Of a stretch of DNA of 64,000 nucleotides, positions 878 through 43,302 are shown piece by piece (the stretch's first letter is position 1; every line of letters begins with the position of its first letter). Below the pieces are notes generated by a model. It had not been told where the DNA came from. It ran no database searches and was given only the letters and a program-made list of their open reading frames with translations. The DNA is taken from assembly GCA_024790105.1 (NCBI GenBank), contig GCA_024790105.1_3053.1; one strand, written 5' to 3'. The position numbers and the translations under genes are program-made. This DNA is from a phage.

Positions 878-3574
878 TCAGCCAAACAGGAAGTCTAACG
901 AAGCTTTTTCTTCATAGTCCATGCCAGCCGATTCACACATACCCGCAAGCGGTTTAACAAACGATTTTTGGAACAAAGTTGAGTGGTCAATCCAAGATAG
1001 TACGTCAGAACGAATTTCTTTTGGAAGTTCTGTACCCGACGGCCAAGCAATGCACTTGTCACCAAATGGATTTCCTTCACGTAATGGAAGAACCATTACC
1101 TTATTTCCATCCAAAATTGGAGCTACACCTAGACCACTAACAGCTCGACGATAAGTTAGCACCCCACGAATGTGGAACGGGCATTTAAATCCTGGCCAAC
1201 CTTTATCATCATATTTCGCTATATCGTTCGCAGTTTTTACTTCAGCAATAACTTTATAGTCGAGTTGACGATATTCTTTCTCGAAGTTCTTGTAGTATTC
1301 TTGGACAGACTCTTCGCCTTCCTGAAGAATACGACGAATACTTTCTTCGAGAGCTTCTTGTACTGCTTTTGGTGTTGAACTCTGCTGAGTTTCCATACCC
1401 ATGATTTTTAGATGCGGTTCAGCAAATCGCTTATCTTCCATATCATAAACGTTCAGAGCATAACGCTTTTTCGCTTTCCAAAATCCACCAACGCCCTTTG
1501 AACCAAGCGGAGGGCAAGAAATAGCTTCACGGTCCATATGCATCAGATGCTCGCGGTTATTCATATAATCACATAACTCACGATATGCAACATCAATCAT
1601 AGGTTCCATCTTTTTCTTACCGAACTGATTCATGAATTCAACTAAATCGTTCTGCTCTTTGAATCGGTCAAGACCAACTTTTTCAATAACTTTATCTACG
1701 CAAACATATACCGAATCAGTATCACCTGCTGCGATGAAATCTTCATCATTAGTTCCGCATACTTTATTCAGATATTCATTAATTTTACGAGCAATCCACT
1801 GAATACCAACTTGGCCGAAAATTGTGATAGCAGTAGCATTTCGCAAATCATAGTAACGGAAATGAATATTACCAAGAGCACCATAAAGACTGTTAATAAG
1901 AATTTTACGGTTCAGCTGATTTGTATTAGCAAGTGTAGCTGCTTTTTCACATTCTTCAATCAGACTATTAAGAACAGATTCAGTATAATTCGATAGTTCA
2001 TTTAAGAAATCATCATTGAACTTAACATATCGTTCAACTTCTGGTTTAGTTGAACAAGACCCTGCGCCTTTCATAATAATCTTTTTAATAGCTTCGGCAT
2101 TCATTTCTTCAGCGAACATTTTCTTTTTCCAGTCTTTACGCTGGAAAAATACTTTAGCAATTTCCTTTGGAATGATACCTTCTTGATGCTTATCATACAT
2201 CCATCCATTCGGAGAACAAGAATATTCATCACTCGGTTTAGGAGCTGTTCCTGCGATATATTCATGAATTGGATGAACTTTAAACTGACCACGAATAGTC
2301 TCAGGACTAATGTTAACCTGACGAATAATGCTCGGATACAGAGACGTCAAGTCAAAACTCATAATATATCGACGAGCAATTGGTTTAGGTTCAAACACAA
2401 ATGCACCCGGAAAACTTTGTTTAACGTGCGAACCTTGTTGAGGAATAACCTTATGTTCACCTTTCAATGAGTTAAAAATAATAGCATCCCAAGTTTTAAT
2501 AGGACTCATTACACCGGAAAAAGGCATTTTAGCGTAATAAGACATACTTAAAACTAGATCGATAAACCCGCGAATTTTATCAATTGCTTGAACTGATTCT
2601 ACGTCAATGATGTTATAACTAATGTATCGTTGATGATTAGTCTCACGAAGTTTATTAATAGGACCGTCGTATGGTAATTTACCTTTTTTGGTTTCATGCT
2701 GAGCAACTGATTCCAAAGAGAATGACGGCAAATTAGTAAAAGCGAATTTCTTGTACAAATCTAAATAATCAAGAATAGATACGCCATCAATAGAATAAAT
2801 TTCTTTGCTACCGTACACATTTTGAATTAGTTTAGATTTTACTCGACCGATTGGAGAGAAGCGTTTCATACTACGTTCACCGAGAACCATTTTAACACGA
2901 TTCATGATATATGGAACGTCAAATCCCTCAATATTCCAACCGGTAAAAATAGCAGGTCGTTTCTGTTCCCAAAGATTAATATATTCCATGAGCATATCAC
3001 GCTCATTATCAAATGGCATATAAATTACTCGGTCAAGAATTTCTTGAGGAACTTCATCACCACCTTCACAGTCAAGCTTAGCAGCTAACTTTGCATCCCA
3101 TTTTGATACTGAACCGTACATTGAATTCAAAAGGTCGAAAACATAAAAACGATCATCAATTGAATCGTAATGAGTGATAGCATCAATTTCATATTCAGCT
3201 TTCATTGGGTCAGGAAATTTATCACCAGTAACCTCAATGTCGCAGTTAGCTACACGAACAAATTTTCGGTCATAAACAATTTCTGAACCATATGTATCAC
3301 TGATGTAAGCGAGTTTAAAATCGTTCATACCGAGAGCTTCGAGACCGATGTCTTCCATTCGCTTCATCCAGTCTCGAGCATCTTTCATTGATGGAAATTT
3401 TTGAGGAGCGCAGTTTTTACCATAGATGTCTTTGTACTTTGACTCTTCCTTACAATGTCTAAACATAGTCGGAAGATATTCTACTTCGCGAGTACGTTCC
3501 TTTCCGTTTTCATCAATATAACGTTCAACAATGTTATTTCCGACTGTTTCAATAGAGATATAAAATTCTTTCAT
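878..3574 (-). CDS. 43: DNA polymerase gp43 (family B)
   Basis: 898 aa, same length as T4 gp43; DTDS polymerase and exonuclease motifs; synteny. Confidence 0.95.
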   Translation of the reverse strand: MKEFYISIETVGNNIVERYIDENGKERTREVEYLPTMFRHCKEESKYKDIYGKNCAPQKFPSMKDARDWMKRMEDIGLEALGMNDFKLAYISDTYGSEIVYDRKFVRVANCDIEVTGDKFPDPMKAEYEIDAITHYDSIDDRFYVFDLLNSMYGSVSKWDAKLAAKLDCEGGDEVPQEILDRVIYMPFDNERDMLMEYINLWEQKRPAIFTGWNIEGFDVPYIMNRVKMVLGERSMKRFSPIGRVKSKLIQNVYGSKEIYSIDGVSILDYLDLYKKFAFTNLPSFSLESVAQHETKKGKLPYDGPINKLRETNHQRYISYNIIDVESVQAIDKIRGFIDLVLSMSYYAKMPFSGVMSPIKTWDAIIFNSLKGEHKVIPQQGSHVKQSFPGAFVFEPKPIARRYIMSFDLTSLYPSIIRQVNISPETIRGQFKVHPIHEYIAGTAPKPSDEYSCSPNGWMYDKHQEGIIPKEIAKVFFQRKDWKKKMFAEEMNAEAIKKIIMKGAGSCSTKPEVERYVKFNDDFLNELSNYTESVLNSLIEECEKAATLANTNQLNRKILINSLYGALGNIHFRYYDLRNATAITIFGQVGIQWIARKINEYLNKVCGTNDEDFIAAGDTDSVYVCVDKVIEKVGLDRFKEQNDLVEFMNQFGKKKMEPMIDVAYRELCDYMNNREHLMHMDREAISCPPLGSKGVGGFWKAKKRYALNVYDMEDKRFAEPHLKIMGMETQQSSTPKAVQEALEESIRRILQEGEESVQEYYKNFEKEYRQLDYKVIAEVKTANDIAKYDDKGWPGFKCPFHIRGVLTYRRAVSGLGVAPILDGNKVMVLPLREGNPFGDKCIAWPSGTELPKEIRSDVLSWIDHSTLFQKSFVKPLAGMCESAGMDYEEKASLDFLFG

Positions 3575-5598: not shown

Positions 5599-6285
5599 TT
5601 AAAAATCGTGGGTAGAATCAGCTTCAAGAGCTACTACATAATTCGCGTGTTCACCTTCAAATTTAGCAGCGCCTTGTTTACCTTTTGCCCAAAGCAGAAG
5701 TTTATAATTTCCTGGTTGCATTTTCATATTTGCCATATTGATAATGAAATTAAATGTATTTTCACCATCATAATCACCAAGAGTCAAAGAATATTTAACA
5801 CGGGTAAGAGCAGAATCTTCTACTTTATTAAAACCGTTAATTACGATTTTACCTTCTTTTACCGTGATAGCAATTGTATCAATTTGCAGACCACGAGATA
5901 CACGCAATAGTTGTTGAAGGTCTTCAGCTTTAATTTCAGTAACAACAGATGCTACCGGGAATGGAATTGGTTTATTAGGAGCAACTACTGTACTCGGATC
6001 GGCTGCTGGCCAAAAAATTGTTGAACGAGCATCAGCAATTTTAATATTTCCATCTTCTGACTGGGAAATTTCTGCATCGTCATTAACTAGAGACAGAATA
6101 CCGAGAAAACCGTTCAAATCGTAAATTGCTACATCAAAATCAATAACGTCAGAAATATTTGCTTCCGCATAAGTTGTACCATTAACTGCGCGAGTCATAA
6201 TAAATTGACCAGATTTAAGCATAATGCCAGAGTTAATAGTAGCGAAATTTTTCAAAATATTCAGTGTGTCTTTAGATAATTTCAT
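5599..6285 (-). CDS. 45: Sliding clamp gp45
   Basis: 228 aa, same length as T4 gp45 and sequence matches as recalled. Confidence 0.95.
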   Translation of the reverse strand: MKLSKDTLNILKNFATINSGIMLKSGQFIMTRAVNGTTYAEANISDVIDFDVAIYDLNGFLGILSLVNDDAEISQSEDGNIKIADARSTIFWPAADPSTVVAPNKPIPFPVASVVTEIKAEDLQQLLRVSRGLQIDTIAITVKEGKIVINGFNKVEDSALTRVKYSLTLGDYDGENTFNFIINMANMKMQPGNYKLLLWAKGKQGAAKFEGEHANYVVALEADSTHDF

Positions 6286-7169
6286 TTCAATTTCCTATTT
6301 ACATAATAGTTAGACCAGGACCGTACAGCACCCTGATAAGATTCGTCGTTAAACCCATTAGCTACTGCAATTTTACGAAATTTATTATAACTCGGTTTTC
6401 CGTAAGCATGCCATAAAGATTTTAATTCATCTTCATGTTCAATCCAAGTTCCTCTAGCTTTAGATTTTCTAAATTTTGATTTGAATTCCGGTAAATTATT
6501 TCTAACAGTTGCTTGAATTGAAGCTCTCTGTCTTCTTTCAGCATTATTCCATAATTCTTTTTGAGATTTAGAAATTTTTGATCTTACACTTTCTGAATTC
6601 ATTATATCACTAAACTTTTTAGCATAACTACAATCAAGATATTTCAATTTCATCTTATTTGAGAGTTTAAGCTTTTTCTCATCGGTCCAGTGATTCTTCA
6701 TTGAATTAGATATTTTGTATTTTACCTCAGAACTATGTTTGTAACCTTTACGAATACCGACATACTCAGGCGTAATTTCAGATTGCGAAAGCTTTACAAT
6801 TTTTCCAGTTAAAACATTTTTATATGTTCCATATCCTTTAGCACCAATTAAAGTATTTTCATCCGCGTATGCTTTATTAAAATATTTTATATTACTTTTT
6901 GCTTTAACTTTTAATTGAAAAAATCTTTCCAATTTTCTTGGATCTAATATAGTTTCAGCTAAAATTTTGACGGTATATTTAGTGGTTTTAATAAGCTCAA
7001 AATATTCATCACTATAACTAGATGACACGCTTCCAGTATAAATCTTTCCAGCTGAATCAATTATATTTGTTCCATCGAAAATTGCGTTAATTTTTGAACC
7101 TATATAATAACACGGAAAAATATTTTTAGCTTCCCGCTCTGGAAAGCTAATAAGATATACTAAATTCAT
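6282..7169 (-). CDS. Seg-like homing endonuclease (degenerate GIY-YIG N-terminus, NUMOD3-like repeats)
   Basis: N-terminal VYLI...YYIGS pattern; C-terminal K/R-rich repeats of the S-x-x-K-I-S type; inserted between rpbA and 45 with 4-nt overlaps. Confidence 0.5.
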
Positions 7170-7555
7170 TTATTAAAATCAGCTGCGATTGTTTCGGCAA
7201 CAATTTGTGCAGCAACAATTAGACGTTCATCTGCATTACCGCAATATTCATCTTCTAAACGTTCACCGCATGAAGTCATAATAAATTTAGCAGCGGCGTT
7301 TAGGGATTCTGCAGTATGTTTGCGCATTAGTTCAATCCATTTATTACTTACTTCACGATCGATAGCTTCATAATACGCATGACGAGCAGGTGCAGATTTA
7401 ATTTTGTTCTGAATAACTTCCATTGCGTTATCAGAAAGAGACGAAACCCATGCGCGACGAATTTTATTTTGGTTTTGCGGATTTGAGTCAGAACGCACGT
7501 GTTTTGGCTGAATATCTTTTACATCAACAGTATAATTCACAGTAATTTTAGTCAT
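7166..7555 (-). CDS. rpbA: RNA polymerase binding protein RpbA
   Basis: 129 aa, T4 RpbA length and position upstream of gene 45. Confidence 0.7.
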
Positions 7556-7564
7556 AATACACCT

Positions 7565-7756
7565 TTAGTCATAATAATCAGTAACAGTCCAAGCTTCATT
7601 TCTATTGGACATTATTTTTGTATATTCTGCTTTAAATGCATTCCTAAGCATAGATTCAGTAACTATATGCTCTTCATTAGAAAAATTATTTCTCAGAATA
7701 TATCGTTTTATTTCAGGAAAAGTTAATAGATGCTGTCCAGTTGAATATTCTGCCAC
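7565..7756 (-). CDS. Small hypothetical protein (T4 45.2-like position)
   Basis: 63-aa ORF in operon orientation. Confidence 0.4.
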   Translation of the reverse strand: MAEYSTGQHLLTFPEIKRYILRNNFSNEEHIVTESMLRNAFKAEYTKIMSNRNEAWTVTDYYD

Positions 7757-7807: not shown

Positions 7808-8524
7808 ATGAATTATAAACTAATTTATGAAAAGTTAATATCTAATGCTAAATCTCGAAAACTTGATTGCTATACTGAATCTCATCACATTATACCGCGC
7901 TGTTTAAATGGAAGTGATGATGCTTCAAACTTAGTAGATTTAACACCAGAAGAGCACTATGTAGCTCATCAACTTTTAGTAAAAATTTATCCTTCTGAAC
8001 CAAAATTAGTCTATGCTGCTAACATGATGACAGTTTCTACGAAATACGCTAAACGCAACAATAAAACTTTCGGTTGGATTCGTCGTAAACTCTGGGAAAT
8101 AGAAAAGAACAAAGAATTCTCCCAGGAGACACGAAAGAAAATGTCTGATGCAGTAGCTAATAAAGCAAGACTAACTTGTCCTCATTGCGGTAAGTCTGGA
8201 TTAAGCGGGAATATGAATCGTTGGCATTTTGATAACTGCCCAAATCACCCTAATCCTAAAGTTAGACCACCAATGTCTAAAGAACACAGAAATAATATCT
8301 CAAACGGGCTTAAAGCAATCGTTCTTGAAGAAACATCCTGCGAATTCTGCGGAATGATAGGCAAGAAATGCGTTATCGCAGCGCATAGAAATTTCTGCAA
8401 GAAAAATCCAAATGGACGCAAGAAAACTGAAAAGACTGGTACTTGCGTCCATTGCGGTAAAGTTACCACTTTCGGAAATTTATCAAGGTGGCATAATGAT
8501 AACTGTAAATATAAACCTAGCTAA
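7808..8524 (+). CDS. HNH homing endonuclease with three C-terminal Cys-rich repeats
   Basis: HNH core ESHHIIPRCLNGSDDASNLVDLTPEEHYVAH; three repeats of C-x2-C-G-K...RWH-x-DNC; opposite strand to the surrounding early operon. Confidence 0.75.
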   Translation: MNYKLIYEKLISNAKSRKLDCYTESHHIIPRCLNGSDDASNLVDLTPEEHYVAHQLLVKIYPSEPKLVYAANMMTVSTKYAKRNNKTFGWIRRKLWEIEKNKEFSQETRKKMSDAVANKARLTCPHCGKSGLSGNMNRWHFDNCPNHPNPKVRPPMSKEHRNNISNGLKAIVLEETSCEFCGMIGKKCVIAAHRNFCKKNPNGRKKTEKTGTCVHCGKVTTFGNLSRWHNDNCKYKPS

Positions 8525-41009: not shown

Positions 41010-41675
41010 TTAAAATTTCATTTTTCGACCTTTAAACCATCCTTCTGGAATTGGGTCAGTTTTCTTAATACGTTTAGAAACTTTTTCATCTAATGAATGA
41101 ATCCACATCATGCCAAATTGGGAATTCTTTTCACCTTGTTGGTGTTTATTTCTGGCGTGAGATTCTTTCATTTTATTAATAGTTTCAGGAGTATGGGTCT
41201 TACCCAAGAAAGATTTAGTATTTAAAAATTTCTCTCTATACTTAGGATTATCCCAAAGCTGTTTAAACCTTTCTGAACCCATTTTACGATATTTTTCTTT
41301 AAGGTCTGGGTCGTTCTCAAATCTGGTTTTAAAAGCAGCAGCCCCTTTTAAGGAAGCTTCTTTCTTTTTATCCAAATATTCTTTAGTGTTTAAATGGTCC
41401 CAACCACCTTCACCACCTAATTTCAAATTATAAACATCAGGGCGCTTTAAAAACTCTTCAGTCACAATATTCTTTTCTGACTCAAACATAGAGGTTTTAT
41501 CGTCAAAGAACTCTAATATTTCTTTAGAGAAATTTTCTATACCATACTTGTCTTGGGCTCTTTTTAATAATTTACCAGAACCCATATATCCATCATCTAA
41601 ATTTTCGGTAGAATGAGCGCCTATATAGATTTTATTATTAATTTTATTTGTTATTTTATAAGTGTAATGGAACAT
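41010..41675 (-). CDS. segB: GIY-YIG homing endonuclease SegB-like
   Basis: 221 aa; N-terminal YTYKITNKINNKIYIGAHS GIY-YIG motif; located in the tRNA cluster as T4 segB. Confidence 0.8.
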   Translation of the reverse strand: MFHYTYKITNKINNKIYIGAHSTENLDDGYMGSGKLLKRAQDKYGIENFSKEILEFFDDKTSMFESEKNIVTEEFLKRPDVYNLKLGGEGGWDHLNTKEYLDKKKEASLKGAAAFKTRFENDPDLKEKYRKMGSERFKQLWDNPKYREKFLNTKSFLGKTHTPETINKMKESHARNKHQQGEKNSQFGMMWIHSLDEKVSKRIKKTDPIPEGWFKGRKMKF

Positions 41676-41794: not shown

Positions 41795-41850
41795 TGCTGA
41801 TTGACGGAATCGAACCGCCGACATCCTCATTACAAGTGAGGTGCTCTACC
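41795..41850 (-). pseudogene. tRNA-Thr (UGU) 3' portion; 5' acceptor and D-stem replaced by HNH gene end
   Basis: Anticodon arm CCTCA-CTTGTAA-TGAGG, T-arm and 3' acceptor AATCAGC present; no complementary 5' acceptor strand; stop codon of HNH ORF overlaps D-arm. Confidence 0.5.
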
Positions 41851-42307
41851 ACGCTTCCGTTATTTTGTTTTTATATGCTCTATTCCTTGATTTATACGTA
41901 TCAAGTTGAGAGTCACAATTGGAACAAACAAATCTCAGATTTTCTAATCTATGGTCATTGTTTATTCCATTAATATGATCGAGAATTAAAGGCATTGGTT
42001 TGCCATTCCATACTGCTTCTATTCCACAGATAGAGCACTCATATGGTAATATTTTGTCTTCTATAAGTCTTTTTCTAAGATGGCTTCTGCCGTAAGAAGA
42101 ATTTTCAACCATTACATCACTAAGATTATATCTGTTGGTTTTTGGACCAGTCTTAAGTCCTTTATTCCAGATTTTGCAACCTTTTTGAGCTCCGGCTCCC
42201 TTCCCTCTCACATATTCAGCTTTATTTGGATTAAGTTTGCAATATTTTTCATGCACACTTTTTCCGCCAGCTTGTTTAAATTCTTTATTACAAAATTGAC
42301 AATTCAT
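41846..42307 (-). CDS. HNH homing endonuclease (inserted in tRNA cluster)
   Basis: 153 aa from ATG (MNCQFC); C-terminal HNH motif LDHINGINNDHRLENLRFVCSNCD; ORF track TTG extension rejected. Confidence 0.7.
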   Translation of the reverse strand: MNCQFCNKEFKQAGGKSVHEKYCKLNPNKAEYVRGKGAGAQKGCKIWNKGLKTGPKTNRYNLSDVMVENSSYGRSHLRKRLIEDKILPYECSICGIEAVWNGKPMPLILDHINGINNDHRLENLRFVCSNCDSQLDTYKSRNRAYKNKITEAW

Positions 42308-42323
42308 TATCTTCTCATTTAAT

Positions 42324-42400
42324 TGGGGTGACCGATGGGATTTGAACCTACGACATTCTGCTCCCAAAGCAGACGCTCTACCAAACTGAGCTACACGGAG
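42324..42400 (-). tRNA. tRNA-Pro (UGG)-like; 3' acceptor strand does not pair (possibly defective)
   Basis: Acceptor 5' CTCCGTG, D-arm GCTC/GAGC, anticodon arm TCTGC-TTTGGGA-GCAGA; T-stem has mismatch; 3' strand CGGTCAC not complementary to the 5' acceptor. Confidence 0.5.
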
Positions 42401-42583: not shown

Positions 42584-43192
42584 TTATTTATTACGTGAAA
42601 AAGACTGTTCTATCAATTCTGGACACTTTCGTTCTATCCATTTTCTAGCTTTTTGTGGGCTTATACCTATTATTTTAGCAGCTTTACTAACCCATCCAAA
42701 TTTAGAATAATCGATTTTAACTAATTCTTCGTAAATTTCATCAGTTAAAATCTTTTCATTAATATTTACCAGTAAATGATATAATTTGTTATCATTAGCA
42801 ATTTTAATGAATCTTTTATAGTTTCCGCCTTTACTTAAACCTAATGAAGTAATTGCAGATGATATAGTAGCCGAATTTAATAATGCGTTTAAAATTTCTT
42901 CATCACTAACATTATAACGCTTTTTATTATTTTTAATATTTTTACCAGCAAAAGTATCAGTTTGCGAGTGACAGTTTGGACATAATAATCTTAAATTTGA
43001 TTTAAGATGATTTTTGTTATTTCCATCAATATGGTCTAATTGCAGAACAATATGCTTATTTTGCCATTTTGAAATTTTACAAATTGCACACTCATATGGA
43101 AAAATATTTTCTTTTATTATTTTGTCTTTCAGCTTTCCTGTGCTAAAATTTGGGTGTTTTCCTTCAAAAATTTCAGCTAATTTAGTATCCAT
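42584..43192 (-). CDS. HNH homing endonuclease with C-terminal helix-turn-helix-like domain
   Basis: HNH motif LDHIDGNNKNHLKSNLRLLCPNCH; paralogous core to ORF 41846-42307; start set at ATG (ORF track begins at upstream TTG). Confidence 0.7.
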   Translation of the reverse strand: MDTKLAEIFEGKHPNFSTGKLKDKIIKENIFPYECAICKISKWQNKHIVLQLDHIDGNNKNHLKSNLRLLCPNCHSQTDTFAGKNIKNNKKRYNVSDEEILNALLNSATISSAITSLGLSKGGNYKRFIKIANDNKLYHLLVNINEKILTDEIYEELVKIDYSKFGWVSKAAKIIGISPQKARKWIERKCPELIEQSFSRNK

Positions 43193-43302
43193 AATATGAT
43201 TCCCAATTATTAACAAAGGCTCTCAAGCAAGAACCCTTGATGATAGAGGGTATTAATCAGTGCGATATGAGTTAATAATAACAAATAATTCTTAAAGCAT
43301 AT

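Follow-up and report, generated by a model that had tools for sequence, protein, structure and literature searches.

The 295-codon ORF between rpbA and gene 45 in the 64,000-nucleotide stretch of phage DNA analysed here (the window) is most probably a free-standing homing endonuclease gene of the Seg class, here called seg. Its product combines a GIY-YIG catalytic domain of the SegG type with a NUMOD3-like linker and a SegA-like C-terminus, and would support homing in mixed infections. Gene identity, fold, residue conservation, sporadic distribution and purifying selection were established.

Genomic context of seg

The ORF list of the window contains seg as the original prediction had described it, on the minus strand and with an ATG start (Table 1), and Pfam agrees with the names given there to the two neighbours. 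The 4-nt overlaps that had been claimed on both sides were read in the sequence: the seg ATG (7169-7167) overlaps the rpbA TGA (7168-7166), and the gene 45 ATG (6285-6283) overlaps the seg TGA (6284-6282). The statement that T4 has no gene at this position also proved correct, as the rpbA-45 gap of T4 (AF158101) is a 55-bp non-coding spacer. Similarity between T4 and the window stops exactly at the last rpbA codon and picks up at the ribosome binding site and ATG of gene 45. The rpbA gene ends with CGT TAA in insert-free phages, T4 included, and with AAA TGA in the insert-bearing phages, including that of the window. Inspection of the sequence around the ORF revealed no intron features, and its location is intergenic.

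A nuclease coupled to the clamp gene had been regarded as unusual. This does not hold, as several T4 genes are packed alike: mobC shares 11 nt with nrdG and 4 nt with nrdD, the overlap of segF with gene 56 is 11 nt long, and segG starts 1 nt past gene 59 and lies ahead of gene 32. Both the tight packing and the N-terminal motif are ordinary for this class of genes.

In the same operon, RpbA of the window phage is 37-38% identical to RpbA of the phages carrying the Mosigvirus and Gaprivervirus alleles; the corresponding values are 59-79% for gp45 and 70-76% for gp44, so that RpbA has diverged far more strongly than either.

Table 1. Features of the seg locus (positions in the window)
Feature	Position	Strand	Evidence
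seg-type ORF, 295 aa, ATG start	6282..7169	-	ORF list, sequence, PHROGs
N-terminal GIY-YIG catalytic domain, SegG subtype, aa 1-102	6864..7169	-	
Helical, weakly NUMOD3-like repeats, aa ~142-235, presumed DNA-contacting linker	6465..6746	-	Pfam (sub-threshold), family profile, model
Three-helix C-terminal domain, aa 242-295, SegA-like, presumed HTH-type DNA-binding	6285..6446	-	hhalign, blastp, model
rpbA, upstream flank	7166..7555	-	Pfam Phage_RpbA 1e-40
Gene 45 (sliding clamp), downstream flank, plausible target gene	5599..6285	-	Pfam gp45-slide_C 1.6e-51, DNA_PPF 7e-33
Overlap of rpbA stop and seg start, ATGA	7166..7169	-	Read off sequence
Gene 45 initiation region in last seg codons, AGGAAATTGAA + ATGA	6282..6296	-	SD AGGA 6296-6293
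Candidate MotA-dependent middle promoter for gene 45, CATGCTTAC, 12 nt, TATAAT	6384..6410	-	Pattern scan
10-bp GC-containing hairpin, then T-rich AAATATTTTT, seg codons 7-15	7126..7150	-	Terminator-like scan, RNA fold centroid

The catalytic domain

The N-terminus of the seg protein is a GIY-YIG domain of the SegG subtype. In PHROGs, the protein matched phrog_655, annotated as 'homing endonuclease', over residues 1-294 (4e-33) and phrog_7504 over residues 1-103 (5e-18). Residues 1-102 share 40% identity with SegG residues 1-100 (tblastn 3e-9; blastp 4e-15). An HMM of the seg family recovered T4 SegG at 3e-43 and matched I-TevII and SegA weakly, with an E-value of 2e-6 for the SegA catalytic domain in a five-sequence search. 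An exhaustive HMMER profile search yielded 265 cluster representatives of homologues at E<=0.001.

An alignment of 155 sequences showed the conserved N-terminal positions V4, Y5, R12, P19, Y22, I23, G24, S25, K26, N28, Y44, S47, L70, E81, F97, N98 and A102. The window protein has the consensus residue at all 17, and SegG shares Y5, Y21-S25, Y44, S47, E81 and N98 with it. The GIY motif corresponds to V4-Y5, with Tyr in 144 of the 155 sequences, and the YIG motif to Y22-I23-G24, with Y in 151 and G in 148. E81 (152/155) and N98 (154/155) are the counterparts of the metal-binding Glu (E75 in I-TevI) and of Asn N90. The distance from Y22 to E81 is 59 residues, compared with 58 in I-TevI. The original prediction had recognized the motif LVY...YYIGS, which is indeed present, but had called it degenerate; it is the normal signature of the SegG subtype.

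The GIY-to-YIG spacing in the superfamily is typically 10-11 residues. In the seg protein it is 16 residues (Y5 to Y22), outside this range, and T4 SegG has the same spacing. SegG is listed as an active free-standing GIY-YIG enzyme encoded between genes 32 and 59, with gene 32 as its target (PMC2988022). Because SegG is reported to be active, the long spacing is a trait of the subfamily and no ground for exclusion.

For the canonical catalytic Arg (R27 in I-TevI) no alignable counterpart was found in the seg protein by HMM and hhalign comparison with I-TevI, in which only the NUMOD3 stretch aligned. Judging from the alignment, the near-invariant K26 and the common R12 are possible stand-ins.

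Direct profile searches yielded little. With the window protein there was no match to Pfam GIY-YIG at E<=10, searches of NCBIfam and of PDB sequences with this single protein returned nothing significant, and Pfam NUMOD3 stayed below threshold. Weak matches to PF19835 (SegE_GIY-YIG) occurred in 8 of 133 relatives. Since T4 SegG likewise has no Pfam or NCBIfam match, the missing Pfam match reflects the limited sensitivity of the model and does not count as evidence against a nuclease. For the same reason, the lack of a profile match, which the original prediction had put forward as a refutation, is not a valid criterion.

An AlphaFold2 model built with 133 sequences had a mean pLDDT of 87.5. 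The modelled N-terminus shows the order expected of the GIY-YIG alpha/beta fold: strand 2-8, which holds the GIY motif, strand 21-26 with the YIG motif, helix 54-62, strand 66-73 and helix 77-87, which includes E81. A short helix (10-14) lies between the two motifs. The segment following YIG is modelled as a beta-hairpin insertion (residues ~27-50) that carries the invariant Y44-x-G-S47; in the alignment, a 3-residue insertion after S47 is peculiar to the clade of the window protein. As a sequence pattern, Y44-x-G-S47 resembles 'DDGYMGSG', a motif found in classical Seg proteins, among them the one encoded at 41010..41675 in the window. A Foldseek search of the model against the PDB returned no match, and against viral models it retrieved SegG, gp32.1, NUMOD proteins and group-I-intron endonucleases.

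C-terminal modules

The C-terminal NUMOD3-like repeats that had been proposed are weak in the window protein itself and clear in its family. Residues 142-158 matched Pfam NUMOD3 (PF07460) with E=0.11 and 12.9 bits, against a cutoff of 20.4, and 92 of 133 relatives passed E<=0.01. The family profile also aligned over the NUMOD3 stretch with the I-TevI DNA-binding domain 1i3j (hmmsearch E=6e-5; hhalign probability 65%). In the model there are six helices at residues 147-235, and three diverged 16-residue repeats fall inside this region. By their sequences, the NUMOD3 repeats appear to have diverged in the clade of the window protein.

Further downstream, the clade alignment over residues 242-282 matched T4 SegA 172-211 (hhalign probability 80%, E 1.4e-5), sharing the SegA-type pattern W..E.lK.lW...GK......K.A...GF...SY. 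Weak similarity of this region to SegA and SegF was also found by blastp, and helices are modelled at 246-255, 261-270 and 276-289. The architecture of the protein is a mosaic of known Seg modules.

Distribution and selection

A megablast search with the 45..45.2 segment matched 642 phage records, about 510 of them at >=90% identity. The insert was present in 25 records among these ~510 close relatives, i.e. in ~5% of T4-like phages; these 25 same-locus copies, all in other Tequatrovirus records, are near-identical to the window copy (97-100%). Close relatives without the insert, among them T4, RB51, RB68, Sf24 and JLBYU31, align in two pieces, and the boundaries of the insert are clean. Even within the species Tequatrovirus gizh, GiZh carries the insert and JLBYU31 does not. 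Comparison of the rpbA-45 junction across T-even genomes shows a sporadic insert at a fixed site; as the original prediction had stated, it is missing from T4.

Alleles with 54-60% identity were found at the same site in Mosigvirus (FL31, AV115) and Gaprivervirus (VR26), so that the insert occurs in three genera. Set against the flanking gene products (gp45, 59-79%; RpbA, 37-62%), the cross-genus identity of the Seg protein (55-63%) suggests that seg has long resided at this locus or was transferred in the distant past, rather than having spread recently between genera. In the AV115 copy (2501..3395 of the compared segment) an A-run with one additional A breaks the frame, which may represent either decay or a sequencing error.

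Pairwise comparison of four Tequatrovirus alleles gave 7-11 synonymous versus 0-5 non-synonymous differences and dN/dS values of 0.03-0.11, based on small counts of 7-16 substitutions per pair. The low dN/dS shows that the seg protein is under purifying selection, which means that the protein matters and not that DNA is cut. Patchy presence, a fixed site and an occasional broken copy make up the classical picture of a homing endonuclease gene.

Flanking sequences were compared between four insert-bearing and four insert-free genomes. In these eight genomes the insert is tracked only by the final codon of rpbA and by three synonymous positions within the first 18 nt of gene 45, where CTG changes to TTA in codon 3 and GAT to GAC in codon 6. 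The cleavage site could not be derived from this comparison. Two candidate markers were rejected: the gp45 difference TTALL (T4) versus TLNIL (window) at codons 7-11 (6253..6267) is not linked to the insert, as insert-free JLBYU31 has TLNIL, and the denser divergence in the last ~100 nt of rpbA is not allele-specific.

Annotation of these alleles varies. GenBank labels include 'putative homing endonuclease' (Bas45/PaulHMueller), 'homing endonuclease' (SHBML-50-1) and 'putative DNA endonuclease' (VR26), and in many other records the product is hypothetical. The GiZh record (6688..7567 of the compared segment) contains the 888-bp ORF without annotation. In VR26 the CDS is annotated in truncated form, from an internal codon; the full ORF (2501..3388 of the compared segment) begins at GTG. 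Literature searches retrieved neither a publication about a homing endonuclease at rpbA/45 nor an experimental characterisation of the same-locus alleles.

Expression of seg and the gene 45 signals

The sequence upstream of the seg ATG contains no Shine-Dalgarno element. Because of this and the overlap of the ATG with the rpbA stop codon, seg probably depends on re-initiation after rpbA and is translated at a low level. The overlap is not universal, FL31 having a 5-nt gap and VR26 a GTG start that overlaps the rpbA TGA. A sigma-70 promoter scan gave no more matches than in shuffled sequence.

The hairpin in the early seg codons (Table 1) is identical in sequence in the Tequatrovirus alleles compared (Bas45, F13076, N2) and might dampen seg expression by attenuation of transcription or of translation. 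In VR26 this position is taken by a different hairpin, of 12 bp. A role as a conserved regulator was dropped since the hairpin is absent in FL31 and AV115.

The 3' end of seg carries initiation signals of gene 45. Its final codons, AAT AGG AAA nnn AAA TGA, are invariant in alleles of three genera and provide the gene 45 Shine-Dalgarno sequence AGGAAA, as in T4; the invariant stretch reads AATAGGAAA...AAATGA, and T4 has AGGAAATTACATG at the equivalent place.

A MotA-type middle promoter for gene 45 embedded in seg is a reasonable candidate. Its core TGCTTAC, 12 nt, TATAAT lies at 6408..6384, ~100 nt upstream of gene 45; the candidate is weak on its own, since the window contains 30 matches to a relaxed MotA pattern where 15 are expected. 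The consensus MotA boxes at the aligned position are AATGCTTTA in VR26 and ATTGCTTTA in FL31, each followed by 12 nt and TATATT. The T4 spacer replaced by the insert contains the consensus box ATTGCTTTA, 12 nt and the -10 element TAAAAT. Among the middle promoters documented for T4 is Pm45 (PMC6024815), and from the sequence motif we infer that it is located in this rpbA-45 spacer. The candidate promoter stretch also encodes the conserved peptide W-x-A-L/Y-G-K/Q-P. A promoter within an endonuclease gene has been described for segG/32, segA, segE, mobB and mobC (PMC2988022).

It is conceivable, though doubtful, that seg has become locked into the replication operon by replacing the Pm45 spacer, and that the hairpin together with DNA binding by the protein modulates clamp expression; the analogy for the latter is autorepression by I-TevI, which doubles as a repressor (PMC2988022). 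If so, an operon-locked selfish gene would regulate the sliding clamp, and hence late transcription, in carrier phages.

Proposed mode of action and alternative explanations

By analogy with SegG, SegF and SegB (PMC2988022), the enzyme produced by an insert-bearing phage in a mixed infection would cut insert-free T4-like DNA at or close to the rpbA-45 junction. Repair of the break by recombination with the insert-bearing template would then copy seg and nearby markers into the cut genome. The gene would be carried on the rpbA-45 transcript with low-level translation by re-initiation, and the essential clamp gene would be spared as the seg 3' end encodes the gene 45 Shine-Dalgarno sequence and, probably, a MotA-type middle promoter in place of the lost one. 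What we infer in this scheme are the nuclease activity, the target site, homing and the function of the promoter, and in our assessment the seg protein is probably an active homing endonuclease now, or was so recently.

The main alternative is a remnant, catalytically dead or domesticated, that persists as a DNA-binding protein or simply because it carries the gene 45 promoter and ribosome binding site. The absence of an identifiable equivalent of the canonical Arg and of a Pfam GIY-YIG match would fit such a remnant, but SegG, which is reported to be active, has the same 'defects', and Y5, Y22, E81 and N98 are retained. Gene 45 signals in the 3' end would select against deletion whatever the activity (an argument made in PMC2988022), and the double role of I-TevI as a repressor offers a precedent. 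However, purifying selection acts across the whole protein, while a promoter carrier should show constraint in the last ~130 nt alone, and the gene is missing from ~95% of close relatives and is therefore dispensable to the phage. We consider a remnant of this kind unlikely.

Still less probable is that the nuclease is active but serves mainly for something other than homing, either to exclude competing phages while its own gene does not spread, or to act in DNA metabolism together with the adjacent replication genes. The position of seg in the replication gene cluster would agree with this, as would marker exclusion of the SegG type, which favours the whole carrier genome (PMC2988022). Yet one and the same cleavage-repair event is read out both as marker exclusion and as homing. 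Patchiness, a site that is fixed in three genera and a frameshifted copy typify a selfish element and not a replication factor, and no replication-related domain was found with Pfam and PHROGs. A chance ORF or misassembly, for which one can cite only that AT-rich composition favours long ORFs, is refuted by the 265 homologous representatives, the confident model, 25 independent genome records, the low dN/dS and a frame intact across three genera at 55-63% protein identity.

Comparison with known systems

As a homing endonuclease gene, seg most closely resembles segG (gp32.1). The catalytic domains share the pattern 'xVY...(16 residues)...YYIGSK...Y-x-G/S-S...E...FN', and each gene is wedged almost without spacer into a pair of replication genes that lie on its own strand. 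Each also contains expression signals of the essential gene that follows it, as documented for segG/32 (PMC2988022); for seg the Shine-Dalgarno sequence is shown and the promoter is a candidate. The insertion sites differ, 59/32 for segG and rpbA/45 for seg, so the targets are presumably different as well. SegG has 210 residues compared with 295 in the seg protein, the regions past residue ~102 are unrelated, and SegG lacks the NUMOD3-like helices and the SegA-like C-terminal domain of the window protein.

SegA resembles the seg protein at its C-terminus (SegA 172-211), and its NUMOD3 element aligns with a 13-residue stretch. In contrast, its catalytic domain is of the 'YYG...DDGYMGSG' type, which is distantly similar, and its gene is located at uvsX/beta-gt. 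I-TevI (PDB 1LN0, 1I3J) is intron-encoded whereas seg is free-standing, and the window protein has no zinc finger. Judged from the model, the helix alpha-1 of I-TevI with R27 and H31 is apparently replaced by the beta-hairpin. Sequence similarity between I-TevI and the window protein is not significant.

The seg gene is a member of the SegG-like branch at an insertion site that was not found in the T4 literature searched, and the label 'homing endonuclease' already exists in GenBank. If active, the enzyme would be a further site-specific GIY-YIG nuclease, directed at a new target within the T4 replication cluster. The gene would then mainly be a further case of a free-standing homing gene that spares its essential neighbour by carrying the downstream ribosome binding site and probably a middle promoter, and it could also mark local recombination between T-even phages. 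General understanding of such elements is unchanged, as the design is known from segG/gene 32, mobC and others.

Other endonuclease ORFs in the window

A 238-aa ORF of the HNH homing endonuclease type is located at 7808..8524 (+), between 45.2 and gene 46 and on the strand opposite to its neighbours. It matched phrog_655 (9e-69) and, weakly, Pfam HNH, and CxxC...RWH..C motifs recur in its sequence. In T4 the 45.2-46 gap is no more than a short spacer, RB51 has a gene described as 'similar to mobB', and FL31, F13076 and N2 carry the ORF too. With endonuclease ORFs at both rpbA/45 and 45.2/46, this small region therefore holds two independent inserts.

A further cluster of endonuclease-like ORFs comprises 41010..41675 (-), 41846..42367 (-) and 42584..43216 (-). 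The first encodes a classical Seg-type GIY-YIG protein ('YTYKITN...IYIGAHSTENLDDGYMGSGKLL'; phrog_314, 1e-48), and the other two contain HNH-like Cys/His motifs.
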